Shown piece after piece: positions 20,401-64,000 of a DNA stretch of 64,000 nt. Location of the stretch: the sequence record PV053165; one strand, given 5' to 3'. How positions within the stretch are numbered: position 1 is the stretch's first letter; the number at the start of each line of letters is the position of its first letter. The stretch is from Escherichia phage PBM-3. Under the pieces are notes generated by a model. It did no database searches. It was not told the DNA's origin and worked only from the letters and a program-made list of their open reading frames with translations. The translations under genes were made by a program, and so were the position numbers.

Positions 20401-23400
20401 ACCCTCACCAATGAGGATACCACTCAAAAAGTAGCTGAAACTAAAACGGAAATGGAAACAGTTTTCCCTGTCTATAACAATGACAAGACACCGAACCAGT
20501 TCCTGAAATCATTTACCCTGCCGGAAGAACCTAAGTCTCGCACCATTGGTTCTGAATCCCCTTTGACTGATATTAAGCAAGCACTGTCTTCTACTGCACG
20601 CTTTGAAGCATTCACTCAAAAAGAAAATAACGCTCTCACAAGTGATGTGATTAAGCGTTATCAGGACTTAATGGGCTTTGGTGAAACTCTGAAGACTACT
20701 CTGTCTGATCGTCTGGCTAAGTTTCTTGCTAATAAGAACGTTGGTAAACGCTTTGCAGAAGGCACAGAGGCTAACCGTTGGGTAGGTGGTAAGTTACTTA
20801 ATATCGTAGAGAAAGACGGAGACACCTTTAAGTTCAATGACCAGTTGTTAGAGACTGCTGTACTTGCTGGTCTGCAATGGCGACTGACTGCTACACAGAA
20901 TGCTGCTGTTAAAGACATGAAAGATGTAGCTGCTATTACTGGAGTAGAAGCATCCTTGTTACCTGAAGGTATCCTGGCTGAATTTGAGAATGCTCAGACT
21001 CTGGTTGAAGCTACTAACTCACTGGCTCAAAAGATTGAATCTTACTGGGGATTGAATCGTAATCCTAATGCACCACTGGGTTATACCAAAGGTATTCCAA
21101 TGGCAATGGCTACAGAGATTCTGTCTTCTCTCATTGAGATGGGTGAAGTTAAAGAGTCTATGCTTGATGTGTCTGAGATTGACCCAGACTCTAATAAGAC
21201 CGTCGGTCTGTATACCATTGAGAAGCTGGATGATAACGATGCCATTAACAAGTTCCCTACTGCTATCGAGGAAGCTGTTCTCGTAGAACCAGAAGAGAAA
21301 ATGTACTTTGGTGATGATATTCCTTCCGTGGCTCAAACTCAGTTACGTAACCCTGCTGTTAAGAATACCCCAGAGCAGAAAGCTGCTCTTAAAGCAGAAC
21401 AGGCTACCGAGTTCCGTGTACACATGCCGATGGTTAACTTCTATGAAGCATTAGGTCGTGACAACATTCTGGAACTGATGGGTGCTGGTACTCTTAATCC
21501 TGAACTGCTGAACGTGAACACTGCTAAGTCACTGGAGGGTAAAAACCTGTCAGTGTCTATGGCATATGATTCCCTGTTCGGTGTAATCAACCAGTTACAG
21601 GAACAGGAGAATGGTCTGGATACGCCTATTCACTATGGTTACAACATGACCCGTGTAGGTCGTATGCAGATGTTAGGTAAGAACAACCCACAATCCAGTA
21701 AACTGGTTCGTGAAGCAATTCTGCCAACCTTCTCTACTATTGACTTGAGTAATGAAAACAGCCAAACATTCTCTGACTTCCAGCTAGGACTGGCTCAGGC
21801 ATTGGGTATCAAGGTACATAATATGTCCCGTGAAGCTATGTCTGAAAAGCTGACCAAAGCTCTGGAAGGTAATCTGAAACCTGCTGTTGATATGATGGTT
21901 GAGTTTGATAAGTCTGGCCACTTACCAGCTGATGCAGTAGATATTCTGAAGACTTCTTTGGGTGGCGATAAATCATTCGTAGCTCTCATGGCTCTTATGG
22001 AATATGCCCGTTACCTGAACAGTGATGACCGTGCCAACTTTAATACCCCACTGTACGTTGAAGCCGATGGTGTAACCAACGGACCAATCAACGCAATGAT
22101 ATTAATGACAGGTGGTAAGTTCACTTCAGACTGGATTAAGAATACTGCTAAAGGTGGTCTGTTCTTCGGTAAAGCTGGTAAGACTATGAATGAGCATCGT
22201 TCACAGGATGACAGTGTTGACCTGTATGAAGCATCTACCAATGGTCTGCAACAAGCACTTAATGAGTTACGTACTACTTACCGTAACAACGTTCCGGTTA
22301 TGAACCAAATGAATCATCTTCAGAAGTTAATGGACCTGTTTATTAAAGACTTTAACCTGAATGAAGACGGTACTCTGGACCTAAAACGTGGTATCGCTAA
22401 AAACCCACTGACCATTACCATCTATGGTTCAGGTGCTCGTGGTATTGCTGGCAAGATGGTTAGTGCAATTACTGATACCATCTATGAACGCTTCAGTGAT
22501 GTTCTGCAAGCTCGTGCTGCTGACCCTAGTATTTCCCCAGCTATGGCAATGTTTGGTAAGGAGGCTGCGTCTGAGGCTGATGCTCAGGCTATGCTGGATA
22601 CTTTCCTTACTTCTATGGAAGCACTGACTGGTAATGTTCCAGTTATGCGTAAAGGTGAATTGTCTATTCAACAGGTAGAAGGTGCTCTGACTGGTAAGTT
22701 AGACCCTCAGAAGTTTACCGTATCGGGTAATGCCCTGAAGAACTTACAAGAGAACATGCTTCACCTGTTCGTTGAACCAATGCGTACTGGTATCCGGAAT
22801 ACTGTTGGGGAAGGTCTGATGCATTCTACTGAGAACTTGCAGAAGGCTACCCAGATTCAGTCTTTGGTTCTACAAGACATGTTCCAACAAGCAGTACAGG
22901 CTAAGCTGGCAGAAAAAGAAAAAGACCCAACCTGGAAGAAGGGTGATTTCTTAACACAGAAAGAACTGAATGAAATTCAGGAATCATTGTCTCCACTGGC
23001 TCCAATGATTGAGACTGGTTCACAGACTTTCTATATTGCTGGTAGTGAGAATACTGATGTTGCTAACCAGGTACTGGCTACCAACTTAGATGACCGTATG
23101 CGTGTGCCAATGAGCATCTATGCTCCTTCTCAGGCAGGCGTTGCAGGTATTCCATTTATGACCATTGGCACTGGTGATGGCATGATGATGCAGACCCTTT
23201 CTACTATGAAAGGTGCTCCGAAGAATACCCTGAAAATCTTTGATGGTATGAACATTGGTATCGACAACATCACTGATGCAAGTCGTAAAGCTAACGAGGC
23301 TGTATACACTTCCTGGCAGGGTAACCCTATCAAGAATGTTTATGAGTCTTTTACTAAGTTCATGAAGAACGTAGACTTCAGCAAACTATCTGATGAAACC

Positions 23401-26400
23401 AAACAGGCTATCGCTAAATCTGCTCTGGAATATGACCAGCGTGAAGGTGCTACCGATGACCTGTTACGTGTTGGTGCTGAACAGATTGAACGTAACCTGC
23501 GTAATATTGCTCTGGGTGTAGATATTCGTCACAAAGTAATGAACCAGGTACAGACTACTGTTGACCAGATGGCTGCTGTTGGTGCTCCTTATGTGAACAA
23601 CGGTAAAATCTCTCTGGAAGGTCTGACCGTAGACCAACAAGTAGCTAAGCTAAATGAACTGTTCGATGCTGAATTAAACAAACGTCGTGATGCAGTACGT
23701 GCTGCTAAAGTAGAACCAGTGAAAGAAGTGCCAGCAATGGAACAGGTTGGTCGTGTACTGAAGTCTGGTGTACGCCTACTGTCTAATACTGCTATCTCTA
23801 AGCTGGCTAAAGAGATGTCTCCGGAACAGCAAGCAGTACTGAAAGAAGTACAGAAATCCCTTGCTGCTAAAGATTATAAGGTTGTTTACGGTACACCTTC
23901 CCAACTGGATGCTTATGCTATTGAGAAGAATATTACTCGCCCAGCACCAGAAGATATTGAAGCTGCTGAAGCTGGTAATGCGTATGGTTGGACTAACTTT
24001 GAAGATAAGACCATCTACTTAGTTACCCCTTCCTTAGAGACTCTGGTTCATGAATTGGTGCATGCTTCTACTTTTGAATCTGTACTGGCTCACTATGAGG
24101 GTACTCCTAATGAAGCGGTCCAGAACATTGAAGACCTGATGAACCAGTTCCGTGCTCTGGATGTTAAGGATGAATCCCCGGCAGTTCGGGAAGCATATGC
24201 AGATGCTCTTAATACTATTAACGGTCATCTATCTAATGGCTTCATTGAGCCAGCAATGGCTAAAGCTGCTGCACTGAATGAGTACATGGCATGGGGTTTA
24301 ACTAACCGTGAACTGATTAGTAAGCAGAAGAAAACCACTGCACTGAAGACTATGGTTCAGGCTGTATATGAAGCAATCAAGCGTCTGGTATTTGGGCGTA
24401 AGAAAGCACCAGCTAATGCAGATGATATGTTCTCTGGCTTACTGTTTAACTCGTCCGTAGTTATGCGTGGGCAAGCTCCTACTGCTGCTGTAGCCAAAGA
24501 TACTACTCTGTTCCATAACAAAACGTATGGTGACAATACTCGTCTGGAAGAGCTAGGGAAAACCTTCGATAAACTGATTACTGACTACATTGGTTCTGAA
24601 CCAGTACAGCAAGTAATTCGTAAAGGTAAGTTCTCTGATGCAGTGGTTAATGCGACTAAAGTAACTCGTGATGTTCAGGCTCATGGCTTCACTATGAATA
24701 TGCAGGAACAACGTCTCTTTACTAACATTGTTGCTGCACTGGCTACTGAAGCTGCTATTAATCCTGCTGCTCTGGCTCGTGCACAGGAATACTACACACA
24801 TGTTACTAAGAACCTGACCGTTGAGTCATTCATGGCTGACCCAGATAGTACTAACCCTGCTGACCGTTACTATGCACAGCAGAAGTTCGATACCATCATG
24901 GGTGCTAACAACATTGAGTTTGATGCACAAGGCCGTTCTTCCTTACTGCCTACCTTTGTTGGTCTGGCAATGGTAAGTGAAGAAGTGCGTAAAGTACTGG
25001 CTGACATTCCTGTTATGAAAGTAGACAAGAAATCTGGCAATACCGCTGATGCAATGCTGACTAACATCGGTACTGCTGCAATGGCTAGTCTGAATGCTCG
25101 TGTAGCAGGAGATACTAAAGCTACCAACGTACAGGAAGGTATGGATGCACTGGCTCAGACAATCATGCAGACGAGTCTCAATGCGCAGTCCTTCTATGAT
25201 TCCATTGCTACTCCTAGTGGTAATGCTATCGACCGTGCTAACCAGTATCTGGTGGATTCTATTGATGTACTGTCTACCCGTGCTTTAGAGGGTGCTCGTG
25301 AAGTTGCAGCTAATACCAAGAACCCGTTGGTTAAAGGTGCTGCTCATGCTGCACAACTAATAGCTGCTATTGCTACAGAGAAAAATGGTGCAATCGTAGC
25401 TGAGGGTGTTATGGCTGCAATGAACCAGGGTAAGGTATGGCAACCTTTCCATGACCTGGTTAATGACTTAACTGGTCGTACTAAGAGCAATGCTTCTGTA
25501 TATGATTTGATTAAAGCAGTGCGTGCACAGGTACAGGCTGACCGTCAGCAGTTCCGTGAACATTTGCCTACCACTATTGCATCTAAGTTCAGCCGTAAGC
25601 TTACTAATGATGAGTGGAAAGCAATGCATACCGGTATGGGTAAAACCGACTTAGCTGTTCTGCGTGACACTATGTCTCTGGGTGAAATTCGTGACTTGCT
25701 GACTGACCAAAAGATTGTTGACCGTGAAGTGAATAAGCTGGAAGCAGATTTGCAGAAACAAGCAGGACGTAACTGGCCTTTGATTAGCCGTAAATCTAAG
25801 CAACTGGCTCAGTACATGATTAATGGCACAGTTGGTAATAACTTGCTGCGTAATGCTACTGCAATCTCTCGTATGCTGGGTGAACGACAGGCTGCACGTT
25901 CTACTGTAGATGTAGCTCAACTGGATAAACTGATTACTCTGTATGCACTGGAAGCAATGAGTAAGACTGACCGTGAGATGTTATCTTCACTGGCTCAGAC
26001 AGAGATTGAAGGCATGGACTTCGCTACTTCTTATCTGGTTGGTCAGCGTAAAGATGAAATGGCTAAAGCCAAATCTGATACTCGTGCAACTCTGAACCAG
26101 TACAAAGGGTATATTCCTGGTGAGACTAAACAGGGTGTTAACTTGATTGTTGCTGAAGATAGTCAGTTTGCTGATTTGATTGAGAAGTCCTATGTACGTC
26201 TGGGTACTTATCAGGGTAGCTCTGCTAATCGTGGTCCAGCACGTAGCTACTACTTTGCACCGGTACAGGCACAGGCTCCATTCTCGCAAGGTATCTTACA
26301 GAACGTTCGCAATACTGCTGGTGGTGTAGACCTTGGTACAGGCTTTACGATGGGTACAATGGTAGCTGGTCGTATCACTGACAAGCCTTCTGTAGACCGT

Positions 26401-27852
26401 ATCACTAAAGCACTGGCTCGCGGTGAACGTGGTAATGAACCACTGCTGCCTGTATATGATGATAAAGGCAATGTGGTTGCTTATGAGCAATCTATTGACC
26501 CTAACATGCTGAAGCACATTGAGGGTGAGAACCATCTCGCTCGTGCAATCGGTGTATGGCGTGGTCGTCAGGTAGAGGAAGCTAAGGCTCAGCGTTTTAA
26601 CGATATGCTGATTGAGAACCTGCATAGCATGTATGAAAACGACATTAAAATGTCTGCCTCTAACAAGTCACAGTACGTTAACCTTCTTGGTTCTAAACTG
26701 GACCCAGTAACTGCTGATGCCCTTAAGCTGATGAACAGTGAAACTCGTCAGAAAGCAGAAAGTCTGTTTGGTCCTGGTGAGTTGTGGGTACGTCGTGACA
26801 TGCTGAATGATGCACTGGGCTATCGTGCAGCTTCCGTAGGTGATGCCTGGTCTGGCAATTCTCGTTGGTCACCAGAAACACTGGATACCTTCAAGAAAGC
26901 TATGTTGGGTGTATTCGGCAACCGTGCTTATAAGTATGTAATGGGTGGTGAGAACCTGGTTCAAAACTTAGTTAAAGAAGCTAAGACTCTGATTGTAGTT
27001 AAATCAGTAGTTGTTCCTGCTGTTAACTTCCTGGCTAACCTTTACCAGATGGTTGGTCGTGGTGTACCTGTTAAGAACATTGCTAAGAGCATTCCACAGA
27101 AGACTGCTGAGATTAACCAGTACCTGAAATCTCGTCTGCGTCAGGTAGATGCAGAAGCAGAATTACGTGCAGCTACTAACCCGAACCAGATTCGTAAGCT
27201 TAAGGCTGAAATTCAGTCCATCACTGATAGTCATAAGCGTATGAGTATCTGGCCTCTGTTAGAAGCTGGTGAGTTTTCTTCAATTGCAGATGCTGGTATT
27301 GGACGAGATGACATCCTGATTACTGAAGGTAAACTTCACGAATACATGGATAAACTGGCTGATAAGTTACCTAAGTCTGTACGTAATGCTGGACGTTATG
27401 CCCTTATCACCAAGGATACTGCTTTATTCCAGGGTATCCAGAAGACGGTTGAGTACTCTGACTTTATTGCTAAAGCAATCATCTATGATGATTTGACTCA
27501 GCGTAAAGGTAAGACTCGTGAAGAAGCACTTGGACGTGTAACGGAAGAGTTCATTAACTATGACCGTCTGCCTGGTCGCTTCCGTGGGTATATGGAAAGT
27601 GTTGGTCTTATGTGGTTCTATAATTTTAAGATTCGTTCTGCAAAAATTGCAGTATCCATGATTCGTAACAACCCGGTACACGCAGCTATGGCTATGTTGG
27701 CTCCAACTCCTACCATGTTTGGTAATGTTGGTTTACCTATTCAGGACAACATCTTCAGTATTGCTGCACAAGGCAATCTCGGTTACTCCTGGGGCTTCGG
27801 TCAGGGACTTCGTGCCCATAACCTTAACCCTTGGCTCAATCTAGCTAACTAA
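17479..27852 (+). CDS. Virion-encapsidated RNA polymerase (giant, 3457 aa)
   Basis: Single ~10.4 kb ORF. Central region has single-subunit RNAP motifs: PLYVEADGVTNG (motif A-like), RGIAKNPLTITIYGSG (exact Rx3Kx7YG motif B), KIFDGMNIG (motif C-like). Size and position match N4-type vRNAP. Confidence 0.8.
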   Translation: MNRKHAMSTFDRLAGFADSITNAKQVDVSTATSQKQAAQGQSPFQLTPENAYNLQTGRVGNLGIGAFEPGSLQADFTQASPLEILNKYGNEQGLQILNSRANAADVVRQDLSKQRTNAEAFGDTLSGVGLGVANTLGGIAALGTGLVNDNAGASIASGMDWLNEGVHNLQSDALNATRKVVQNQNQISAQKNQKLYEEDIKNGESSLVASLSRIGRDAFDSVANTLDNGMAATDGLSEGVGSLFTGGPLIRGVSALGKVMVGGDKAVKGITLAAELGSRPAQVALSAGRVAAPAIAIGGMEAGGAYQQTASEIMKMSHQELASKSPVYQQHIADGLSPDEARRQTASETGIIAAGLTAPVAAATGPLVSKFELNPLKVGSLAGAGSNMLRETVEEGIQSGTSQFAQNKAIQGNVDAKRDLLKGVGEQAGLGALYGFGSAGVAQAPGTTVKAVGASAGPALRTTLAGASLVGSALAKAASPITNILVQRGEEVAKRNEQASPVSDATVNAAAQEATAQAEQAQATVQEAVDAMDISPEEKAAATQYAADLTQAMKFDPVELEQASPTIREAVSGSTNRVEAIQKMADLVNTTEDPNVQMEAAIQMYDNIMSMDSFINRDPGALANLEQGSPAANIVDQFSGLMANVQNTPKVLRAFRAIHSMIQEQAEAGKLKATEEANQAQANNIAMAADMSPEVLDADSVNMVLKHASEGKITLGNRQRAALQSAAALLQGAREFDAKAEELGLRPQDIVSKQIKTDESRSNEGQYSALQHAKRIRSAYNSGNFDLASAYLDDFMKFAQHMQNKVGALNEHLISGNADKNKSVHYQALTPSREWVRSRTGLGVNPYDTKSVKFAQQVGLEAKTVADIANALATAYPELNVSHVKVTPLDSRLDKPAAQVVKEFRQGGLDATQSQQTNEPVNQVDETPAPAQETTTTTVQPKAKPVVENKTVPVKEASSKAEEVSTTKSETVDATLTNEDTTQKVAETKTEMETVFPVYNNDKTPNQFLKSFTLPEEPKSRTIGSESPLTDIKQALSSTARFEAFTQKENNALTSDVIKRYQDLMGFGETLKTTLSDRLAKFLANKNVGKRFAEGTEANRWVGGKLLNIVEKDGDTFKFNDQLLETAVLAGLQWRLTATQNAAVKDMKDVAAITGVEASLLPEGILAEFENAQTLVEATNSLAQKIESYWGLNRNPNAPLGYTKGIPMAMATEILSSLIEMGEVKESMLDVSEIDPDSNKTVGLYTIEKLDDNDAINKFPTAIEEAVLVEPEEKMYFGDDIPSVAQTQLRNPAVKNTPEQKAALKAEQATEFRVHMPMVNFYEALGRDNILELMGAGTLNPELLNVNTAKSLEGKNLSVSMAYDSLFGVINQLQEQENGLDTPIHYGYNMTRVGRMQMLGKNNPQSSKLVREAILPTFSTIDLSNENSQTFSDFQLGLAQALGIKVHNMSREAMSEKLTKALEGNLKPAVDMMVEFDKSGHLPADAVDILKTSLGGDKSFVALMALMEYARYLNSDDRANFNTPLYVEADGVTNGPINAMILMTGGKFTSDWIKNTAKGGLFFGKAGKTMNEHRSQDDSVDLYEASTNGLQQALNELRTTYRNNVPVMNQMNHLQKLMDLFIKDFNLNEDGTLDLKRGIAKNPLTITIYGSGARGIAGKMVSAITDTIYERFSDVLQARAADPSISPAMAMFGKEAASEADAQAMLDTFLTSMEALTGNVPVMRKGELSIQQVEGALTGKLDPQKFTVSGNALKNLQENMLHLFVEPMRTGIRNTVGEGLMHSTENLQKATQIQSLVLQDMFQQAVQAKLAEKEKDPTWKKGDFLTQKELNEIQESLSPLAPMIETGSQTFYIAGSENTDVANQVLATNLDDRMRVPMSIYAPSQAGVAGIPFMTIGTGDGMMMQTLSTMKGAPKNTLKIFDGMNIGIDNITDASRKANEAVYTSWQGNPIKNVYESFTKFMKNVDFSKLSDETKQAIAKSALEYDQREGATDDLLRVGAEQIERNLRNIALGVDIRHKVMNQVQTTVDQMAAVGAPYVNNGKISLEGLTVDQQVAKLNELFDAELNKRRDAVRAAKVEPVKEVPAMEQVGRVLKSGVRLLSNTAISKLAKEMSPEQQAVLKEVQKSLAAKDYKVVYGTPSQLDAYAIEKNITRPAPEDIEAAEAGNAYGWTNFEDKTIYLVTPSLETLVHELVHASTFESVLAHYEGTPNEAVQNIEDLMNQFRALDVKDESPAVREAYADALNTINGHLSNGFIEPAMAKAAALNEYMAWGLTNRELISKQKKTTALKTMVQAVYEAIKRLVFGRKKAPANADDMFSGLLFNSSVVMRGQAPTAAVAKDTTLFHNKTYGDNTRLEELGKTFDKLITDYIGSEPVQQVIRKGKFSDAVVNATKVTRDVQAHGFTMNMQEQRLFTNIVAALATEAAINPAALARAQEYYTHVTKNLTVESFMADPDSTNPADRYYAQQKFDTIMGANNIEFDAQGRSSLLPTFVGLAMVSEEVRKVLADIPVMKVDKKSGNTADAMLTNIGTAAMASLNARVAGDTKATNVQEGMDALAQTIMQTSLNAQSFYDSIATPSGNAIDRANQYLVDSIDVLSTRALEGAREVAANTKNPLVKGAAHAAQLIAAIATEKNGAIVAEGVMAAMNQGKVWQPFHDLVNDLTGRTKSNASVYDLIKAVRAQVQADRQQFREHLPTTIASKFSRKLTNDEWKAMHTGMGKTDLAVLRDTMSLGEIRDLLTDQKIVDREVNKLEADLQKQAGRNWPLISRKSKQLAQYMINGTVGNNLLRNATAISRMLGERQAARSTVDVAQLDKLITLYALEAMSKTDREMLSSLAQTEIEGMDFATSYLVGQRKDEMAKAKSDTRATLNQYKGYIPGETKQGVNLIVAEDSQFADLIEKSYVRLGTYQGSSANRGPARSYYFAPVQAQAPFSQGILQNVRNTAGGVDLGTGFTMGTMVAGRITDKPSVDRITKALARGERGNEPLLPVYDDKGNVVAYEQSIDPNMLKHIEGENHLARAIGVWRGRQVEEAKAQRFNDMLIENLHSMYENDIKMSASNKSQYVNLLGSKLDPVTADALKLMNSETRQKAESLFGPGELWVRRDMLNDALGYRAASVGDAWSGNSRWSPETLDTFKKAMLGVFGNRAYKYVMGGENLVQNLVKEAKTLIVVKSVVVPAVNFLANLYQMVGRGVPVKNIAKSIPQKTAEINQYLKSRLRQVDAEAELRAATNPNQIRKLKAEIQSITDSHKRMSIWPLLEAGEFSSIADAGIGRDDILITEGKLHEYMDKLADKLPKSVRNAGRYALITKDTALFQGIQKTVEYSDFIAKAIIYDDLTQRKGKTREEALGRVTEEFINYDRLPGRFRGYMESVGLMWFYNFKIRSAKIAVSMIRNNPVHAAMAMLAPTPTMFGNVGLPIQDNIFSIAAQGNLGYSWGFGQGLRAHNLNPWLNLAN

Positions 27853-56554: not shown

Positions 56555-57772
56555 TTAACTTAATGCATAATCCGTTTCAAGAATGTCCTGCCAGAGGCTG
56601 TCATCCAGCTTACCAGCAGAGAACTCTTGCCCCAGTACTTGAGACAGAATGAAGCCCAGTAAGTCACTCTTAGCAATGTCAGACAGAATCTGATTGTACT
56701 GACGACGCAGGTCATTACCATAGTTAGGGTGGCAACGGAAGCAATCATGTACAGTCATTACAGGGAATGGTTTCTTAGGCATAGTGTCGATCATATCTGC
56801 TACTACTTGACGGTCTACCAATGCAATAGTATTCGGGTCAAGGAAGTCTAGGATAGACAGCGACAGGAATCCTGACCTTTCATAATGATTCCAGATTTCC
56901 ATAGTCTTCTCTTGGTTCCCCTCAATAACGGGGTATTCACTTGGCCCGATATCGCACAGTTCCCGTACATAGGCAACCAGTTTAGGGTCGAAGTTACAAC
57001 GACGCAGCATCTCACGTACTACCATCCCATCAATAGAGTGAGTGATGTTAGCAGAGAGCATACGGGTCTTCTCTTCAGTACCCTGAACCATACGAGTGAT
57101 GTCAAATGGTTTACCCAAGAAGTTAACAGTCTGTACTTCAAGAACCATGACTTTAATGACAGCATGGAAGTTGTCAGGGAGTACCCATATGTAACGGTTA
57201 GCATCCGGGTTACCACATTGCAGTAAGAACTTGTTAAGTGCCCAAGGACCACTTGCAACTGTTTCCATTACATTTTCAAAAGTCTTGAGACGGATACCTT
57301 CCCCGAATACTTCTTTAGGTTTGGCTTCTGAACCGTAGAATGCAGTCATAACTGCCTGCTTGGTATCACTGCGTTTAATACGGGATGCTTCACCAAGGAT
57401 GTCCAGCATCTTGTGATATATAACTGTATAAGCATCACGTCGTAATGGCTTACCATTCTCTCCCATGTAATTAACTACGTTACACAGTTCAGCAGCAGAG
57501 CGGTCACCAGTCAGGCAGGCCAGTAACTGCAAGCCTGATGATGTAGCATCCAGGGCTACGGCATATCCGATAGGCTTACCAGCTTTCATATCTTTCCATG
57601 CGTTTACACCAGCATAGAACAGTGCAGATTCCTCAGCTTCATCTACCAGATTAAGCAAGTTAGCTTCATTCTCATCGAACCAAGCAATACGCTCATCCCA
57701 GGTCTTTTTATCCAGACCATAGTTATTGGCAATATCTACTTTCAGGTATTCACGAGCGGTTAACAGTTGCAT
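56555..57772 (-). CDS. Phage RNA polymerase II, catalytic (C-terminal-half) subunit, T7-like
   Basis: T7-RNAP-family palm motifs: ALDATSSGLQ (motif A), RSDTKQAVMTAFYGS (motif B, K-x7-YG), VMTVHDCF (motif C). 405 aa, matching the larger subunit of a split RNAP II. Confidence 0.8.
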   Translation of the reverse strand: MQLLTAREYLKVDIANNYGLDKKTWDERIAWFDENEANLLNLVDEAEESALFYAGVNAWKDMKAGKPIGYAVALDATSSGLQLLACLTGDRSAAELCNVVNYMGENGKPLRRDAYTVIYHKMLDILGEASRIKRSDTKQAVMTAFYGSEAKPKEVFGEGIRLKTFENVMETVASGPWALNKFLLQCGNPDANRYIWVLPDNFHAVIKVMVLEVQTVNFLGKPFDITRMVQGTEEKTRMLSANITHSIDGMVVREMLRRCNFDPKLVAYVRELCDIGPSEYPVIEGNQEKTMEIWNHYERSGFLSLSILDFLDPNTIALVDRQVVADMIDTMPKKPFPVMTVHDCFRCHPNYGNDLRRQYNQILSDIAKSDLLGFILSQVLGQEFSAGKLDDSLWQDILETDYALS

Positions 57773-57829
57773 TTTATGTTCCTTTTGCTTCTTGGCTCCT
57801 CACTATGAAGAGCCTGCTTATTGGATGGA

Positions 57830-58069
57830 TTAGCCAGCATTAAATGATGACAATACTATTCCTGGTTCCACACCTTCTGTGGCAATACCCAGGTACTCGA
57901 CGTGCACTTTATCTGGGGAAGAACACCAAGCGGAAGATAGATTCCATTCTCCGTCTGGATTAATAAGGCGAGCTTCTTCCTTAGTTGTAGTAGCTACCAC
58001 TGCGGAATCGTATGTATCCCATCCTGTATTCTCTTCCTGGCTAATGAGCCATAGTTTTAACCTACTCAT
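57830..58069 (-). CDS. Hypothetical small protein between the two RNAP II subunit genes
   Basis: 79-aa ORF. Confidence 0.3.
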   Translation of the reverse strand: MSRLKLWLISQEENTGWDTYDSAVVATTTKEEARLINPDGEWNLSSAWCSSPDKVHVEYLGIATEGVEPGIVLSSFNAG

Positions 58070-58880
58070 CGTTTACTAACTCCTTATCAGCGAACTCCAG
58101 TACAGCTTTGTTGTAGCTGGTTCCCTGATAGTTGATGTGATAGCCCTGAGCGTAAGTACGCCCACGTTTGTCATATTTGTGACCCAGTGAGAAGTTATTA
58201 CCTTCTTTGGTCACTAACTCCATTACTTCCTTAGCGGTACGGCTGTACTTCTCAAAGGCTTTAACACGTTTCTCGTATTCCTGACGGGTTTCACCCTCTT
58301 TGGGCTTATCCATATTAGGACGAGAGTCTTTTACATAGTTAGCAACGTCCCAGTTGATACTTAGACGCTGATTATTCATACGGTTGATGTGATCAAGACA
58401 GACATCCATCTCATGATGGTTCTTCTTGAGGATGATACTTCCCCTGCTCTCGTAGTAACCTGTATCACGGTTACACAGAACAGGCTTAGGAGCACTTACG
58501 ATAGGTAATGGATACTGGAATGCTTCCAGTTCCATCTGAACATCTTCACTAATCTCGTAGATAACACCGAACTTGTCGATGGTAGGGTCATAGTTGAAGC
58601 AGTCATTCTCTGCCATCTTATACAGACAGTCAGCGATGTACTGAGCATCATCTGAATGGCTCATAAGAGAGCCAATCATAGTCTGAAGGTCAGCACGTTT
58701 ATGTAGGGCAATCTGCACCATTGCATCAATGAGCAGCTTATAATCAATTTCCAAATAGGCAGCGAATGCCTTAAAGTCAATTTCTTCGGAGTCCTCAAAT
58801 TCCTTCCTCATGCGAGGGAGTAATTGATTTTTGTTGAAAAGAATTTCGAGTTGCTTCTGATGTTCAATGGATGAGTACAT
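58062..58880 (-). CDS. Phage RNA polymerase II, N-terminal-half subunit, T7-like
   Basis: 272 aa; contains YDKRGRTY resembling a T7-RNAP N-terminal motif; lies upstream of the catalytic subunit gene. Confidence 0.6.
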   Translation of the reverse strand: MYSSIEHQKQLEILFNKNQLLPRMRKEFEDSEEIDFKAFAAYLEIDYKLLIDAMVQIALHKRADLQTMIGSLMSHSDDAQYIADCLYKMAENDCFNYDPTIDKFGVIYEISEDVQMELEAFQYPLPIVSAPKPVLCNRDTGYYESRGSIILKKNHHEMDVCLDHINRMNNQRLSINWDVANYVKDSRPNMDKPKEGETRQEYEKRVKAFEKYSRTAKEVMELVTKEGNNFSLGHKYDKRGRTYAQGYHINYQGTSYNKAVLEFADKELVNDE

Positions 58881-58913
58881 CGCTTATTCTCCTAAATGTG
58901 ATTAATAACCAAA

Positions 58914-58928
58914 AGCTGCGGAGCAGCT
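58914..58928 (-). promoter_or_regulatory. Candidate virion-RNAP promoter hairpin (GC-GGA-GC core, 3-nt loop)
   Basis: + strand AGCTGC-GGA-GCAGCT, preceded by CCAAAA; sits ~35 nt upstream of the RNAP II subunit gene start. Confidence 0.5.
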
Positions 58929-58933
58929 ATTAC

Positions 58934-59194
58934 CTAACGTTTAGTCCAAAAGGTAATACGAATACTGTTCTCTTGACCAAGGTAGTCAATACGTACATAT
59001 AAACCATTACCACTAAACTCGTTATTTTTCTTCTGGTAAGGCCATACCAGACTACGCATAGGTATTTTAATTAAACCAGATATGTGACCTAGTTTAGTAC
59101 GATCCTTTAGTTCGTTTTGTAATGCACAATAGATATCATGCCGTGTAAGTGCTCTGGCTCTGACTTGAGCAGTCCACAGTTCTTCATAAGTCAT
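58934..59194 (-). CDS. Hypothetical protein
   Basis: 86-aa ORF. Confidence 0.35.
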   Translation of the reverse strand: MTYEELWTAQVRARALTRHDIYCALQNELKDRTKLGHISGLIKIPMRSLVWPYQKKNNEFSGNGLYVRIDYLGQENSIRITFWTKR

Positions 59195-59196
59195 TA

Positions 59197-59547
59197 TTAA
59201 CTCCAGTAGTTGTAAGCATCGCCTAAGTGTTTACGCCATGCTTCGGGTAACAGTACATTTCCGGTTACATTAATGAACTGGTATGGGTCCAGGTAGTCAT
59301 TACTCATGACTTTGAAATCCCATTGTGGATTGGCAGATGCATAAGCAATAAAGCCCTCAATGAAGCCATAGATAGCACCCTCTTTGATACGGTTACCATT
59401 GCCATCTCTTACTGGAATAGCAAAGCTATTACCATAATGACCATAGGCCATACCCCAACGAGCACCATGCTTCTTATAAGCTAACTTGGCAGAAGCATTG
59501 GTATGTTGTCCTAGTGTATTGGTAGTGAATACGAATATTTCTTTCAT
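59197..59547 (-). CDS. Hypothetical protein
   Basis: 116-aa ORF with Gly/His-rich segment GQHTNASAKLAYKKHGARWGMAYGHYGNSFAIP. Confidence 0.35.
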   Translation of the reverse strand: MKEIFVFTTNTLGQHTNASAKLAYKKHGARWGMAYGHYGNSFAIPVRDGNGNRIKEGAIYGFIEGFIAYASANPQWDFKVMSNDYLDPYQFINVTGNVLLPEAWRKHLGDAYNYWS

Positions 59548-59550
59548 TAG

Positions 59551-59931
59551 TTACCCCTTTGGATTCTCCACAAAGTAGTTATACATAGCTTTTACTAGCT
59601 TCTCTTTAATAACCTCACCATGACATGGTTTCGGATAACAGAAGCACTGTAAGGCCAACCCTTTCTCATCAATGGCTTTATTACCAAGACGATTAAGTTC
59701 ATCCAATACAGCTTGATTCTTCCTCATGATTTGTTCATTAAGCCATACTCGATATTTGGCTATAACCTGTTCTCTTGAACCGTCTTTACCAATAACGAAT
59801 GGATTTCCTAATGGTGAACCACGTCCGATATACTCACCGGATTTACCGTGATGTTTATTAACAATGATAATTGGACGTGCAGCTACACCCAGCAAAGCAT
59901 TGGTGTCGTCCCCTAATGTAATAGTCTTCAT
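59551..59931 (-). CDS. DUF4326-like protein
   Basis: YIGRGSPLGNPF ... VIAKYRVWL ... CFCYPKPCHGEV matches the DUF4326 pattern as recalled. Confidence 0.5.
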   Translation of the reverse strand: MKTITLGDDTNALLGVAARPIIIVNKHHGKSGEYIGRGSPLGNPFVIGKDGSREQVIAKYRVWLNEQIMRKNQAVLDELNRLGNKAIDEKGLALQCFCYPKPCHGEVIKEKLVKAMYNYFVENPKG

Positions 59932-60170
59932 GGTTTTAATGCCTCAATAGATGTACTTACTTTACATACAGTAGTTCCTTCTAATGCGTCTATTTTGTAA
60001 GCTAACCCTCTTGTTAACATTACCCCGTTCATTACTTTATTAACCTCTTCTAGGTTAGGTACAGAAAATGCTTCATTTAATACGGGAGTTGTATGCCAAT
60101 CTATATAATCATCCGGCATAGCTATAAAATCATCCCCCTTTTTGAATACATAATATTCTTCATAAATCAT
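59928..60170 (-). CDS. Hypothetical protein
   Basis: 80-aa ORF, coupled. Confidence 0.3.
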   Translation of the reverse strand: MIYEEYYVFKKGDDFIAMPDDYIDWHTTPVLNEAFSVPNLEEVNKVMNGVMLTRGLAYKIDALEGTTVCKVSTSIEALKP

Positions 60171-60481
60171 GGCTTAAGTACCTGGAATGCGAACACAGGA
60201 CGTTTACTACGCCACTGGTTCATAGCTAGTTCACTAGTTTCAGAACCATCATGTAAGTCATAAATGAATGAGATTACATAGTCTGGTTCTTCCGGGAAGT
60301 TCTCTGTAGAGAATGGTAGACCTGATTCTTTAAGGATAGGAACCAGTGGAGATTCAGCATTGCAGTAGAGGGTAAATTCTTCATTGAATGCCTGGCTTGT
60401 TTGAGATACATAATCAATATTACGCATCATTTTATCTACATCTGTAAATGTAGAATCATGAACTACTAGAATAGTTTTCAT
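60167..60481 (-). CDS. Hypothetical protein
   Basis: 104-aa ORF, coupled. Confidence 0.3.
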   Translation of the reverse strand: MKTILVVHDSTFTDVDKMMRNIDYVSQTSQAFNEEFTLYCNAESPLVPILKESGLPFSTENFPEEPDYVISFIYDLHDGSETSELAMNQWRSKRPVFAFQVLKP

Positions 60482-60732
60482 ACCTTTCTCAATGTCCCAT
60501 AGATGTTATTATCGACAATACTCAAATCACAAAAACCAATTTCTTCTTGTCTCCCAGAGGATACCCAGATATTGTTTTCTGTTAGCTTAGGCTTCTTAGA
60601 GAATCCTATTAATGAGGTATTAGCACTTTTATATTGACGTGGTAATAAAGCTATATACTTAACCCAGTGAGGTACTTGAATGGTGTGCTTCATATATTCC
60701 ACAGTCTTGCCTGTAGGATATGTAATAATCAT
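60478..60732 (-). CDS. Hypothetical protein
   Basis: 84-aa ORF, coupled. Confidence 0.3.
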   Translation of the reverse strand: MIITYPTGKTVEYMKHTIQVPHWVKYIALLPRQYKSANTSLIGFSKKPKLTENNIWVSSGRQEEIGFCDLSIVDNNIYGTLRKV

Positions 60733-61089
60733 TTAGTACCTCACAACGTATACGGGTTTATTAAGCCTATACATGATATCAATCATGTGCTTGGTTCCTT
60801 TGGAATTACCATCCCAGAAACATACAGCAGCATCTGCAAATTCACCCATTTCCAGGTTACGTTTATAACCAGCACATTTACCATGTTTATCCCAGTTTGC
60901 TGGGAAATTATGAATAGGCATTTTGTTATTAGCCCATAGACTATATGCAAGCATATCTGCTCCACGAGCCATACCACATACTAATTCCGGACATTCAGGT
61001 ATATTCCCTGAATTTACTAACTTCTGTAATTCCTCAATCATAAGATTGGTATTTACGAAGTCTCTTCCACCAGCTACGATTAGTCTCAT
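60733..61089 (-). CDS. SLOG-family protein (DUF2493/YspA-like)
   Basis: LIVAGGRDF ... CGMARGADMLAYSLW ... FPANWDKHGKCAGYKRNLEM ... FWDGNSKGTKHMIDI matches the DUF2493 SLOG pattern as recalled. Confidence 0.45.
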   Translation of the reverse strand: MRLIVAGGRDFVNTNLMIEELQKLVNSGNIPECPELVCGMARGADMLAYSLWANNKMPIHNFPANWDKHGKCAGYKRNLEMGEFADAAVCFWDGNSKGTKHMIDIMYRLNKPVYVVRY

Positions 61090-61307
61090 TTCTGATACCC
61101 CTGTATATAGTTAATACGGCGAATACGTTGAGTAGATGCCTTAACAGCCATCTGTTGATTTTCTTCTTTACGCTGGTTTTCCAACAGCTTATCCCATTCT
61201 TTCTGGTTCCGTTGTTTCTGTAATATACGACTACAACGCTTATGATTAGCAACTCCTTTACGTTTGTTACATACAGGGCAAACACCATAATCAGTTGAGT
61301 ACATCAT
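61086..61307 (-). CDS. Small zinc-ribbon-like protein
   Basis: CPVC...HKRC Cys/His cluster in a basic 73-aa protein. Confidence 0.35.
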   Translation of the reverse strand: MMYSTDYGVCPVCNKRKGVANHKRCSRILQKQRNQKEWDKLLENQRKEENQQMAVKASTQRIRRINYIQGYQK

Positions 61308-61308
61308 T

Positions 61309-61554
61309 TTAGTTGAATCCGTAATAGTTAAAGTAAGGAGCCTTTCTGTCTTCAGTTGATTTGATAATCACTGATTCATCTAGAAAGTACATCTCATTAT
61401 TAATACGTACTTCTCTGTAAGATAACTTACCAAAGTTACGTATATATACCTTTCTAACATATACCTTACGGGTATGCTTTAGCATGAACCAGGCATACCC
61501 TTTGGGATTTACTAATATTGTTTTATCTACGATGACATCACTAAGATTGTTCAC
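61309..61554 (-). CDS. Hypothetical protein
   Basis: 81-aa ORF. Confidence 0.3.
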   Translation of the reverse strand: MNNLSDVIVDKTILVNPKGYAWFMLKHTRKVYVRKVYIRNFGKLSYREVRINNEMYFLDESVIIKSTEDRKAPYFNYYGFN

Positions 61555-61855
61555 CGAGTGCCTCCATCAGTATTTTACGAATAACGTTAACATCAGATTC
61601 AGTACCAATTAAACCAACAGGTTTACCTGTACTATCAGTTACAAAGCCAGCAATCCTTTCCATCTCTGCTGTAATTAACTTGTCACCATTAATAAGACGA
61701 TTACGAAGGTAAGCTTCATAAGCTACCTCTATATCTTCTACTGTGGTTCTTTCATTACGAGCAAATGGATTACTTAATGGGAATGGTAAATGTACCCGTA
61801 TATTCCTGTCAGCTACTTTAGCTTGGTGAGGAAGTATACATACTATTTCATTCAA
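61541..61855 (-). CDS. Divergent DUF4326-like paralogue lacking the Cys/His motif
   Basis: HLPFPLSNPF ... TVEDIEVAYEAYL ... GKPVGLIG parallels the GNPF and Y..WL blocks of the 59551..59931 protein but lacks the C-x-C-x-P-x2-C-H block. Confidence 0.3.
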   Translation of the reverse strand: MNEIVCILPHQAKVADRNIRVHLPFPLSNPFARNERTTVEDIEVAYEAYLRNRLINGDKLITAEMERIAGFVTDSTGKPVGLIGTESDVNVIRKILMEALGEQS

Positions 61856-61892
61856 GATTATTTCTCCTATTTAAATACATATCTAACTATTC

Positions 61893-61930
61893 AAAAATAA
61901 AAAATAGGAGCCTCCTATTGGAGGACTCCT
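61893..61930 (-). terminator. Strong rho-independent terminator
   Basis: On the - strand: AGGAGTCCTCC-AATA-GGAGGCTCCT followed by ATTTTTTATTTTT. Confidence 0.6.
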
Positions 61931-61932
61931 TA

Positions 61933-62061
61933 CTATTTGATACATGGATGATTGTAAGTAACAATCTTACGTACTGGTTCAGATGTCTGTTGCTTAGCAG
62001 CCAGACGTTCCTTCATCTTCTGTACGTCAGCTTTGGTTCCCATGATTAATGACTTACGCAT
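61933..62061 (-). CDS. Small hypothetical protein (42 aa, below the ORF-track cutoff)
   Basis: ATG at 62061 with GGAG ~10 nt upstream; ends just before the terminator at 61930. Confidence 0.25.
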   Translation of the reverse strand: MRKSLIMGTKADVQKMKERLAAKQQTSEPVRKIVTYNHPCIK

Positions 62062-62226
62062 GTTTGGTACTCCACATAAAGTTAAAAGGCTTGTTGTTGT
62101 TACGTACAATTCTTACAACCATTTGATAGCCATTGAGTTGTACAACACCATAGTGTCGTTTCTGTACACCAGTGTGATATCTACGAAAGATACATTCTTC
62201 AATGGCATCCTCAATGTTAGTGAATA

Positions 62227-62445
62227 TCACTGGTTCCTCTTTGCAAACTCTTCTGCTTCTTTAGCCCAGAGTTGCTTACGTACCTCTTTAGCTATGATGG
62301 AAGCAAACAGACACTTAACGAATACAACTGGTAACTTACAAATAAGTACCAGCTTAGTTCTTACCCACTTGGCTCCATTGAGAATGTAACCACGTAGGCG
62401 ATACAGCACATAACAGAGTATTACAAACGCAATGAAGTCCAACAT
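62227..62445 (-). CDS. Small membrane protein
   Basis: N-terminal TM helix MLDFIAFVILCYVLY. Confidence 0.35.
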   Translation of the reverse strand: MLDFIAFVILCYVLYRLRGYILNGAKWVRTKLVLICKLPVVFVKCLFASIIAKEVRKQLWAKEAEEFAKRNQ

Positions 62446-62449
62446 AGTC

Positions 62450-62635
62450 TTACACCTTATGAAGTTTACGGATTTGTTTACGAGTAGGTTTAGCTACAAA
62501 GAAGTGGTCATAATGCTGACCATTCTTATCTTCTACAGATACCTGCCAACGAGCATTAAGAGACATCTTACTACCCCAAGGTTGTAACATAACAATCAAC
62601 TTTTGTGAGTTATAACGGTTACATACTGTACGCAT
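62450..62635 (-). CDS. Hypothetical small protein
   Basis: 61-aa basic ORF. Confidence 0.3.
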   Translation of the reverse strand: MRTVCNRYNSQKLIVMLQPWGSKMSLNARWQVSVEDKNGQHYDHFFVAKPTRKQIRKLHKV

Positions 62636-62741
62636 AATGGTTACTCCTTCATCTAATATAAATCTATATCTATCTGGTTACTGTTTCAGTACCCTTCGTC
62701 TAAAGATACTCAAAAAGTAGAAATAGATTATCGTCTAGTTA

Positions 62742-62772
62742 AAAATAAAAGACTCCCCGAAGGGAGTCTAGT
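62742..62772 (-). terminator. Rho-independent terminator
   Basis: On the - strand: AGACTCCC-TTCG-GGGAGTCT followed by TTTATTTTT. Confidence 0.6.
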
Positions 62773-62778
62773 GGTTGA

Positions 62779-63162
62779 TTAGAAAGTCAGTTTACGAGCA
62801 TATTTATTCTCGTCTGCTGGGATGTCAGCAGCCTCTGCTTTCACACGACGAAGTTGAACTTGCAGGTTAATGATACCTTCTTCACCTGGTTCCAGGTTCT
62901 GAGCATATTCAATTAACTGTTCCAACAGGTCGTTCTGTGCACAACGCATAGCACGGAAGTCAGCATTGCTGCTATTAGTAGGCAGCGGCTCCTGAGTATC
63001 CAAAGGAATACCAGTAGGCAATGAGATGAATTTCTCATCATCAGAGCCTTCATTAGCTACATAACCAATGTTCAGCCAGAACTGAGCTTTAGGCTTATCA
63101 GCTTTAGCAGTAGAAGTAGCAGCAGTGTTAGATTGACCGAAAGTGAATTTTTGAATAGACAT
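62779..63162 (-). CDS. Early protein, function unknown
   Basis: ATG at 63162 with GGAGAG RBS (ORF track extends to 63261). Directly downstream of a candidate hairpin promoter and followed by a terminator. Confidence 0.45.
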
Positions 63163-63274
63163 TTTGTACTCTCCAGATAAATGATTGTTTGATTTATGGG
63201 TTTGTCCGTCGGTGACTAAACCCAAGAAAAGACTTAAGATTTCAATGATTAGTGGATGCATTTAAATCATCCAT

Positions 63275-63291
63275 AAGACGCGGAGCGTCTT
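63275..63291 (-). promoter_or_regulatory. Candidate virion-RNAP promoter hairpin (GC-GGA-GC core, 3-nt loop)
   Basis: + strand AAGACGC-GGA-GCGTCTT with CCATAA immediately 5'; upstream of the 62779..63162 gene. Confidence 0.5.
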
Positions 63292-63295
63292 GGTT

Positions 63296-63499
63296 TTAAC
63301 TGTTATTAGGTCGGTGCTGTTTGATAGCTTTAAGCAAGGCTATCATGTCATCAATTTCTTTCTCGTTAAGTTTCCACAAGATGGAATCCCCATCAGGATA
63401 ACCCTTAGCGGAACCATGATTCACGAGAACTACTCCGTCTACAATTGCTCCAAATAGTTTTCCTCTTTGGATAGCAATCTTCTCTATGTTAAATGCCAT
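63296..63499 (-). CDS. Hypothetical small early protein
   Basis: 67-aa ORF. Confidence 0.35.
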   Translation of the reverse strand: MAFNIEKIAIQRGKLFGAIVDGVVLVNHGSAKGYPDGDSILWKLNEKEIDDMIALLKAIKQHRPNNS

Positions 63500-63548
63500 A
63501 AATAGGATTCTCTTAAAGTAGAATAACTATCTACTTTTGACTATCTAT

Positions 63549-63857
63549 CTAATGTTCAAAACAGGAGACTCCGAAGAGCCTCCTAGGTGCGTTTTCTTTA
63601 TCCTTACAGAATTCTTCAATACTTTTCTTACGCAGAGTCTCAGTCATAGCTGTCTCCTCTGCCAGTTTATTAACAAAGGTATGCATTTCTAATTTAGTAC
63701 GGATGGCTTGTTTCTCTGCCATAGTACTTACATATGAATTAAGCATACCTACTGCTTTAGTTGCTGTACCAAATGTATCTGCAACAGTAGTAGCAGCTGA
63801 GTTAACAGTACCAAGTAAAGTTCCTGCGGTCATACGTACAGTAGCGGTAGTAGTCAT
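63549..63857 (-). CDS. Hypothetical early protein
   Basis: 102-aa Thr/Ala-rich ORF; first gene downstream of the hairpin at 63900. Confidence 0.4.
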   Translation of the reverse strand: MTTTATVRMTAGTLLGTVNSAATTVADTFGTATKAVGMLNSYVSTMAEKQAIRTKLEMHTFVNKLAEETAMTETLRKKSIEEFCKDKENAPRRLFGVSCFEH

Positions 63858-63899
63858 GATGATAGCTCCAATAGTTGATGATAGGACGACATGTCCATA

Positions 63900-63914
63900 A
63901 CATGCGGAGCATGT
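63900..63914 (-). promoter_or_regulatory. Candidate virion-RNAP promoter hairpin (GC-GGA-GC core, 3-nt loop)
   Basis: + strand ACATGC-GGA-GCATGT with CCATAA immediately 5'; ~45 nt upstream of the 63549..63857 gene start. Confidence 0.5.
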
Positions 63915-64000
63915 GTAACGTGTAAGGTGGGGTAGGGTAGTGGCTACACCGTCAACATACCGGGGGGGATGGTTGAGTGTAAGGGTGTAGCCCCAGCCAC

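Follow-up and report, generated by a model that had tools for sequence, protein, structure and literature searches.

In phage N4, the early promoters are hairpins whose extrusion is driven by supercoiling and needs gyrase and host SSB. According to a review, the determinants read by the N4 virion RNA polymerase (vRNAP) are A or G at -11, G at -10, G at -8, C at +1, a C:G closing pair and a sheared -10G:-12A pair; the cryo-EM initiation complex formed on a P2 oligonucleotide holds two GTPs. Among the Pseudomonas N4-like phages, transcript 5'-end mapping in LUZ7 has documented hairpin early promoters with a preference for starting at G; nine early starts were found there. Equivalent promoter predictions are routine in N4-like genome papers. 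Our search of the open-access literature returned no paper listing promoters of G7C or other Gamaleyavirus members, the original G7C description lying outside what the search returned, and it found no transcript or biochemical data for PBM-3 or any Gamaleyavirus.

How does Escherichia phage PBM-3 compare? The stretch of PBM-3 DNA analysed here, 64 kb in all and hereafter called the window, is a Gamaleyavirus, a G7C-like coliphage of the Schitoviridae, and shares 99.6-100% identity with the Escherichia phages UE-S5b and PBM-2. Its gene map is reversed relative to that of N4. The last 402 nt (63599-64000) are part of a direct terminal repeat: positions 1-402 of the UE-S5b record match them at 98.5%, and the other end of UE-S5b matches too. 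The near-identical GenBank records (the relatives UE-S5b and PBM-2) carry no annotation of vRNAP promoters, and an Rfam search of 57500-64000 gave zero matches.

The first-pass annotation of this DNA had picked out three short perfect hairpins on the + strand, and these read exactly as described: AGCTGC-GGA-GCAGCT (58914-58928, site 1), AAGACGC-GGA-GCGTCTT (63275-63291, site 2) and ACATGC-GGA-GCATGT (63900-63914, site 3). The hexamers said to precede them are likewise there, CCAAAA at the first and CCATAA at the other two. The final A of the hexamer is also the first stem base at each site, so that the three sites are in perfect register. The stems are perfect, of 6, 7 and 6 bp respectively, and each carries its GGA loop on the + strand. 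The 20-mer CCAWAANNNGCGGAGCNNNT is present in three copies without a mismatch (58909-58928, 63271-63290 and 63895-63914), all on the + strand and all in the final 5.1 kb; there is none in the remaining 59 kb, and the next-best matches in the window need three mismatches.

How rare is such an arrangement? Against dinucleotide shuffles of the window, the heptamer GCGGAGC by itself is not significant (3 observed, 2.4 expected). A GCGRAGC that is required to carry a stem of 5 bp or more occurs at a mean of 0.107 per shuffled window, three being reached in 1 of 3000 shuffles, and when CC at +1/+2 is added the mean falls to 0.005 per window, with a maximum of 1 in 3000 shuffles. A similar density of the motif elsewhere in the genome, which the earlier annotation had named as an outcome that would count against its reading, is not seen. 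Taken alone, site 3 has a weak z-score (-1.5) in DNA folding, and the nearest-neighbour model behind it may fail to credit the special stability of GNA loops. A fourth promoter was sought across the window, and no further match was found at fewer than three mismatches. Two other hairpins were considered and judged to be chance: GTCTA-GGA-TAGAC (56846-56858) is without -8G and -9C, and AATAGC-AAA-GCTATT (59416-59430), which does have -8G, -9C, -11A, -12A and +1C, has A at -10 and lies within an ORF.

A comparison with N4 itself had been proposed as a check. In N4 the template strand bears the same 20-nt motif in three syntenic positions, 89-108, 558-577 and 4547-4566, and window sites 3, 2 and 1 fall at the N4 P1, P2 and P3 positions; of the N4 sites, 558-577 agrees in sequence with the published P2 oligonucleotide of the cryo-EM complex, and the P1 and P3 coordinates were assigned from motif and position rather than from the papers that first mapped them. 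Site 1 (58909-58928) is identical in 20 of 20 positions to N4 4547-4566, upstream of gp15. The P2-like stem, GACGC/GCGTC, differs from that of N4 P2 (GAAGC/GCTTC) by one compensatory pair, and at the P1-like site the loop is GGA and the stem CATGC/GCATG, against GAA and GTTGC/GCAAC in N4 P1. In both phages a C:G pair closes a 3-nt loop that has a purine at its centre, the stem has -8G, and CC stands at +1/+2; they also share the number, order and orientation of the sites, the genes downstream (gp1, gp2 and gp15/16), and the placement at the first-injected genome end, with P1 some 90-110 nt from the terminus. The strand logic of the first-pass annotation holds as well: with the GGA loop on +, the + strand is the template of the - strand genes, and N4 has the equivalent arrangement, with genes on + and the motif on -.

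The predicted P3-like promoter (site 1, 58909-58928) reads CCAAA-AGCTGC-GGA-GCAGCT on the + strand, its CC being +2 and +1; the predicted P2-like promoter (site 2, 63271-63291) reads CCATA-AGACGC-GGA-GCGTCT-T, with the 7 bp stem, and the predicted P1-like promoter (site 3, 63895-63914) reads CCATA-ACATGC-GGA-GCATGT, + again being the template in both. Within the terminal repeat lie the P1-like site and the greater part of the gp1-like gene. The 90-nt terminal sequence just upstream of the P1-like site is strongly conserved. Every site is an inverted repeat with a stem in the 5-7 bp range and a 3-nt loop on the template strand, and the base determinants of N4 vRNAP (-8G, -9C, -10G, -11G, -12A and +1C) are present at all three. 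The loop-centre purine at -11 is G (58921, 63283, 63907), the GC-GGA-GC core supplies -10G and -12A of the sheared pair along with the C:G loop-closing pair (-9C/-13G), and the stem has -8G (58918, 63280, 63904). Template +1C lies 11 nt from the loop centre (58910, 63272, 63896) with a second C at +2 each time. The predicted starts are therefore 58910, 63272 and 63896, with transcription leftward and RNAs beginning GG. The GCGGAGC heptamer belongs to the same class as the extraordinarily stable GCGNAGC DNA mini-hairpins (PMC13037366), which is consistent with a stable template-strand hairpin; those mini-hairpins are however a physical-chemistry motif and not a biological system, and the window heptamer, unlike them, sits in a longer stem and is coupled to a start site.

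The three hairpins would be read by the 3457-aa vRNAP encoded on the + strand at 17479-27852. It is 67% identical to N4 gp50, which at 3500 aa is slightly longer, and 70% identical in the mini-vRNAP domain, and matches the N4 vRNAP PDB chains with E = 0. Catalytic D559 and D951 are conserved, as are all those promoter-contact residues that were checked (K114, R119, W129, D901 and R904).

Within the terminal 5.1 kb, the sites are co-oriented with, and stand upstream of, homologues of gp1, gp2 and gp15/16, and with the syntenic N4 sites this bears out the N4-like three-promoter layout suggested earlier. The first gene after the P1-like site is the gp1 homologue (63549-63857, - strand; 72% identity to N4 gp1), with a 39-nt leader. 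Downstream of the P2-like site is a homologue (62779-63261, - strand; 69% identity over its full length) of N4 gp2, the cofactor of RNAPII. Its start is ambiguous, ATG 63261 giving an 11-nt leader without a Shine-Dalgarno sequence and ATG 63162 having the Shine-Dalgarno GGAGAG, and annotations of related phages disagree. The P3-like site precedes, by a 30-nt leader with the Shine-Dalgarno AGGAGA, the homologue of gp15, the small subunit of the middle polymerase RNAPII (58062-58880, - strand; 67% identity to N4 gp15); the homologue of the large subunit, gp16 (56555-57772, - strand; 68% identity), is in the same transcription unit. The distance of 30-110 nt to an early gene claimed in the first-pass annotation stands for sites 1 and 3, whose hairpins are 34 nt from ATG 58880 and 43 nt from ATG 63857; for site 2 it stands only with the shorter gp2-like frame (113 nt from ATG 63162) and fails with ATG 63261 (14 nt). 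Terminator-like sites on the - strand are found at the 3' end of the gp1-like gene (63563-63584, read from the sequence as a hairpin with a TTCG loop and then GTTTTG), where SP5M has a terminator annotated at the equivalent place; after the gp2 homologue (62750-62769, AGACTCCC-TTCG-GGGAGTCT, then TTTATTTTT); and after the gp6 homologue (61906-61930, with a single bulge in its 10 bp stem, followed by ATTTTTTATTTTT).

The motif is preserved among relatives. In 16 related IMG/VR contigs (54-97% gp15 identity), 44 of the 46 GCGRAGC heptamers on the template strand are embedded in stems of 5 bp or longer, as against 1 of 10 on the opposite strand. Stem covariation amounts to 46 cells changed on both sides, a figure matched in none of 500 shuffles, in a set selected for the heptamer and three further pairs (stem of at least 5 bp) and hence with inner stem pairs partly ascertained; that filter removed only 2 of the 46 template-strand heptamer matches. 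In columns 10-20, as in 11-19, four pair types occur and no cell is unpaired, and the outer stem appears free in base identity while retaining complementarity. Neither +1 nor +2 was used for selection, and among distinct related sites C is found at +2 in 34 of 34 and at +1 in 33 of 34. At the more distant loci L019-L022 (31-43% gp15 identity) no hairpin built on the GCGRAGC heptamer was found. The putative P2 of Klebsiella phage KP8, AAGACGCTCCGCGTCTTATGGA (PMC6950046, Table 1), and window 63270-63291 are exact reverse complements of each other, and the other putative KP8 sites have the GCGGAGC core and CC start in common with the window. Four sites, P1-P4, are predicted in KP8 (PMC6950046), as against three in the window plus the terminal-repeat copy outside it; four sites are also seen in some of the IMG/VR relatives. 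The Pseudomonas phages LUZ7, LIT1 and PEV2 are alike in that their early genes are preceded by 3-nt-loop hairpins on the template strand, but stems as short as 4 bp are reported: the prediction paper of 2010 gives 4-5 nt, and the mapping in LUZ7 gives 4 bp or more. In these phages transcription starts 13-14 nt from the hairpin centre, as against 11 nt from the loop centre at the window sites.

What then are the hairpins? N4 synteny, the base determinants, the conserved polymerase contacts, the rarity of the full motif and the covariation of the stems support the vRNAP promoter reading of the first-pass annotation. We put at about 0.93 the probability that this G7C-like, N4-type phage uses the three hairpins as its early promoters, orthologous to N4 P1, P2 and P3 and read by the virion-packaged, injected vRNAP (17479-27852). 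Promoter function in PBM-3, including actual initiation, is something we infer, and hairpin extrusion and SSB dependence are carried over from N4. By that analogy the early-gene end of the genome would enter the cell first, and gyrase-driven negative supercoiling would push each inverted repeat out into a small cruciform. The hairpin on the template (+) strand would be unusually stable because of the C:G closing pair and the sheared -10G/-12A pair, and the opposite-strand hairpin would be melted by host SSB. The vRNAP would then bind the template hairpin through -11G, -10G/-9C and -8G, and initiate with two GTPs opposite CC, 11-12 nt from the loop centre. The P1-like site would serve the gp1 homologue, the P2-like site the gp2 homologue and small early genes, and the P3-like site the gp15/gp16 middle polymerase genes. 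Since the P1-like site is within the direct terminal repeat of about 400 bp, a second, identical copy should be present at the last-injected end. It is conceivable, if improbable, that this copy does more than the textbook role, firing across concatemer junctions or off the genome end and, with the 90-nt terminal sequence, aiding end recognition or transcription-driven DNA entry, and that the site 1 hairpin in addition weakly attenuates read-through into the RNAPII genes.

One might think instead that the hairpins act in RNA, where they would stop leftward early transcription as intrinsic terminators or dampen it as attenuators. A consensus scan does flag site 1 on the - strand (AGCUGCUCCGCAGCU then UUUGGUUAUU) and site 2 on the + strand, but site 3 is upstream of all early genes and so has nothing to terminate. 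On the - strand, sites 2 and 3 are followed by TTATGG and not by a T-run; after site 1 the run in relatives is TTGTGG, TTTCGG, TTTAGG or TTAAGG, with the CC kept. The stems moreover are short, 6-7 bp, whereas canonical terminators with long GC stems and T-runs are found elsewhere (62750-62769 and 61906-61930), and invariance of the loop bases is not expected of a terminator. We rejected this very unlikely reading on the unconserved T-run and the location of site 3.

Might the hairpins be conserved relics, or sites for another factor such as a protein of replication or packaging, or RNAPII together with gp2, and go unused by vRNAP here? In LUZ7 the middle promoters are likewise GC-rich hairpins, so that hairpin recognition is not exclusive to vRNAP within the family. 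Against this, the vRNAP contact bases and the checked contact residues are conserved together, the sites are at exactly the N4 P1, P2 and P3 positions, and N4 RNAPII reportedly uses different, non-hairpin motifs and starts at T. Two of the sites, furthermore, precede the genes for RNAPII and its cofactor, which cannot depend on RNAPII. We give this explanation just as little weight as the terminator one. Chance co-occurrence of three palindromes, to which the unenriched bare heptamer might point, is effectively refuted by the relatives' stems with their compensatory changes, by the rarity of the full motif in shuffles, and by the strand, register and genome end common to all three copies.

The hairpin promoters of PBM-3, as putative orthologues of P1, P2 and P3, are the textbook N4 arrangement, an element already known; the significance of the finding beyond annotation is small, and it opens no new question. 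It does allow three early transcription units to be drawn, with starts predicted to the nucleotide, for PBM-3 and for the near-identical UE-S5b and PBM-2, in which they are unannotated. It also shows that the N4 promoter code, of hairpin, -11G, -8G and CC at +1/+2, and the residues that read it have been conserved together across Enquatrovirus, Gamaleyavirus and the KP8-like phages.

The early end of the window was read in the first-pass annotation as carrying candidate promoters for an N4-type virion RNA polymerase (vRNAP), and this reading is correct, as judged by synteny of an N4 20-mer, the promoter determinants, the polymerase residues and covariation among relatives. Direct reading of 58700-64000, together with an exhaustive scan for perfect stems with 3-nt loops, bears out the three + strand hairpins at the coordinates claimed for them: AGCTGC-GGA-GCAGCT (58914-58928), AAGACGC-GGA-GCGTCTT (63275-63291) and ACATGC-GGA-GCATGT (63900-63914). 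Because the flanking hexamer (CCAAAA or CCATAA) runs one base into the stem, the three sites are in exact register, and a single 20-mer, CCAWAANNNGCGGAGCNNNT, fits all of them with 0 mismatches. All other matches in the window carry 3 mismatches, at a frequency not above chance. The three sites lie in the final 5.1 kb of the window, and the folding energies of the template hairpins as single-stranded DNA are -5.7, -6.9 and -4.7 kcal/mol.

The proposed alignment to the N4 early promoters P1-P3 holds. When the first 9 kb of NC_008720 was scanned for the 20-mer, it was found on the template strand at 89-108 (CCATAAGTTGCGAAGCAACG), 558-577 (CCAAAAGAAGCGGAGCTTCT) and 4547-4566 (CCAAAAGCTGCGGAGCAGCT), the last just upstream of gp15; the P1 and P3 coordinates are assigned by motif and position. 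N4 558-577 contains the core, ...AGCCAAAAGAAGCGGAGCTTC..., of the P2 oligonucleotide in the 2026 cryo-EM initiation complex, and N4 4547-4566 is identical to window 58909-58928 at 20/20 positions. The motif is on the template (+) strand, so that transcription would run leftward toward the early genes, as had been claimed. On the - strand, the P1-like site (63895-63914) is followed by a homologue of N4 gp1 (63549-63857, 72% identity), the P2-like site (63271-63291) by one of gp2 (62779-63261, 69%), and the P3-like site by those of gp15 (58062-58880, 67%) and gp16 (56555-57772, 68%). The three-promoter layout equals that of N4 P1-P3 in number, order, orientation and target genes. According to the literature, N4 P1-P3 lie within ~8 kb of the left end (~10% of the genome); the window is oriented in reverse of the conventional N4 map, and its end is apparently the 'left' one of an N4-type genome, since it coincides with the ends of the UE-S5b and PBM-2 records. 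The region shares 99.6-100% identity with Escherichia phages UE-S5b, UE-M3, UE-S5a and PBM-2, and ~87-95% with many further Gamaleyavirus (G7C-like) phages of the Schitoviridae.

What does the polymerase require of such a site? According to the review of Lenneman and Rothman-Denes (PMC4496689), vRNAP specifically recognizes -11A/G, -10G, -8G and +1C, -10G forms a sheared pair with -12A, and extrusion and stability depend on the C:G loop-closing pair and on the loop 5'G and 3'A. With the + strand taken as template and the loop centre as -11, all three window sites have -8G, -9C, -10G, -11G, -12A, -13G and -14C, and C at +1 and +2. This register predicts leftward RNAs starting at 58910, 63272 and 63896 with a 5' GG, which fits the pair of GTPs present in the N4 cryo-EM initiation complex. 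Another + strand hairpin, AATAGC-AAA-GCTATT (59416-59430), within an ORF at 59197-59547, has -8G, -9C, -11A, -12A and C at +1, with A for G at -10; it is probably a chance occurrence. The ORF at 17479-27852 (3457 aa) hits the PDB chains of the N4 virion RNA polymerase at E = 0; its identity to N4 gp50 is 67% over the whole protein and 70% in the polymerase domain, which spans about residues 973-2078 and aligns to N4 998-2103. Residues K114, R119, W129, D901 and R904 (mini-vRNAP numbering, offset 997) are conserved without exception, each in an identical local context, and the same holds for the catalytic D559 and D951. Use of the sites by some factor other than vRNAP is unlikely, as the bases that vRNAP contacts and the protein residues have been kept together, and RNAPII, the middle polymerase built of gp15 and gp16 subunits with gp2 as cofactor, could not transcribe its own genes first.

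Might the sites at 58909-58928 and 63271-63291 be terminators instead? A consensus terminator scan does flag both, but the proposal fails: the third site is upstream of all genes, a T-run is missing at two sites and unconserved among relatives at the third, and invariant loop bases and CC are not required of a terminator. Sequence reading and the terminator scan place terminator-like hairpins on the - strand at 63563-63584, 62750-62769 and 61906-61930, and the SP5M record annotates terminators at the three equivalent places; early promoters are without annotation in the SP5M and UE-S5b records. A 67-aa ORF (63296-63499, - strand) lies in the interval from the terminator-like hairpin following the gp1-like gene to the P2-like promoter. 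It lacks its own promoter and any homologue among N4 gp1-gp16, and only read-through from P1 would express it.

Under the promoter reading, the gp1-like gene has a predicted leader of 39 nt and the gp15-like gene one of 30 nt carrying the Shine-Dalgarno AGGAGA; for the gp2-like gene the length is 11 or 110 nt. The long gp2-like frame opens at ATG 63261, 11 nt from the predicted start at 63272 and without a Shine-Dalgarno, and a strong GGAGAG precedes the in-frame ATG 63162. N4 gp2 is arranged likewise (predicted start 576, ATG 586). The protein is annotated as 160 aa in UE-S5b versus 126 aa in SP5M, and its N-terminal 33 residues are moderately conserved. Translation may begin at ATG 63261, on a nearly leaderless mRNA, or at ATG 63162.

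By itself the GCGGAGC heptamer is unremarkable in the window (3 observed, 2.4 expected). Dinucleotide-preserving shuffling (3000 replicates) gave a mean of 0.107 GCGRAGC sites with stems of 5 bp or more per window, and 1 of the 3000 reached 3; once CC at +1/+2 was required as well, the mean was 0.005 and the maximum 1. Sixteen IMG/VR contigs (54-97% protein identity) were retrieved through the gp15 homologue and so are free of selection for the motif. Their template-strand GCGRAGC heptamers have flanking 5-8 bp stems in 44 of 46 cases; on the opposite strand a stem of 5 bp or more flanks 1 of 10. One hairpin lies 38-41 nt (or ~275-300 nt) upstream of the gp15-like gene, and the others are further upstream in the early region, toward the genome end. 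Loci at 31-43% identity have no hairpin built on the heptamer. Thirty-four distinct sites, including the three of the window and three of N4, align gap-free, with compensatory stem variants GCTGC, GGTGC, GCAGC, GACGC, GAAGC, CATGC, GTTGC, GGGGC, GTGGC and GGCGC, each matched by its complement on the other side. In this alignment 46 cells are changed on both sides, a number reached by 0 of 500 shuffles, and pairing falls from 88% to 20-49% when the 3' partner is slid, the inner stem pairs being partly ascertained because the set was pre-filtered for stems of at least 5 bp, a filter that excluded just two template-strand heptamer hits. C is found at +1 in 33/34 sites and at +2 in 34/34, and neither was used for selection. 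Shuffle rarity, the stems at relatives' template-strand heptamers and compensatory covariation exclude three palindromes arising by chance.

Window 63599-64000 (402 nt) matches UE-S5b 1-402 at 98.5%, and also the other end of UE-S5b; on these matches it is a direct terminal repeat, within which lie the P1-like promoter and the greater part of the gp1-like gene. The opposite genome end, beyond the window, is therefore predicted to carry a fourth promoter copy (loop centre at UE-S5b 309). From the P1-like site to the genome end (63915-64000, ~90 nt) the sequence closely resembles the N4 left end when the two are aligned; GTGTAA..AAGGTGGGGTAGG, seven consecutive G and GTGTAAGGGTGTAGCCCC are long blocks of identity. 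By comparison, the early proteins share just ~45-88% identity with their N4 counterparts. This terminal sequence could be involved in end recognition, packaging or injection.

Hairpin promoters of this kind are already known, being a defining and well-characterized feature of N4. Papers on N4-like genomes routinely predict them, as for Pectobacterium CB1, Klebsiella KP8 and Pseudomonas LUZ7, LIT1 and PEV2, and those of LUZ7 have been mapped by experiment. Reverse-complementing the P2 listed for KP8 (PMC6950046) gives window 63270-63291 exactly, and the site at 58909-58928 is identical to N4 P3. By homology with N4, the end carrying the promoters would be injected first, and supercoiling generated by gyrase would extrude the inverted repeats. 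Host SSB would then strip the non-template hairpin, leaving the stable template hairpin to be bound by vRNAP, with initiation at CC; the early products would include gp1, gp2 and both RNAPII subunits required for middle transcription. The early regions of some close relatives hold four heptamer hairpins rather than three, and in several an insertion of 230-260 nt separates the P3-like site from the gp15-like gene (IMG/VR loci L008, L009 and L012), so that the number and spacing of early promoters vary within the genus.
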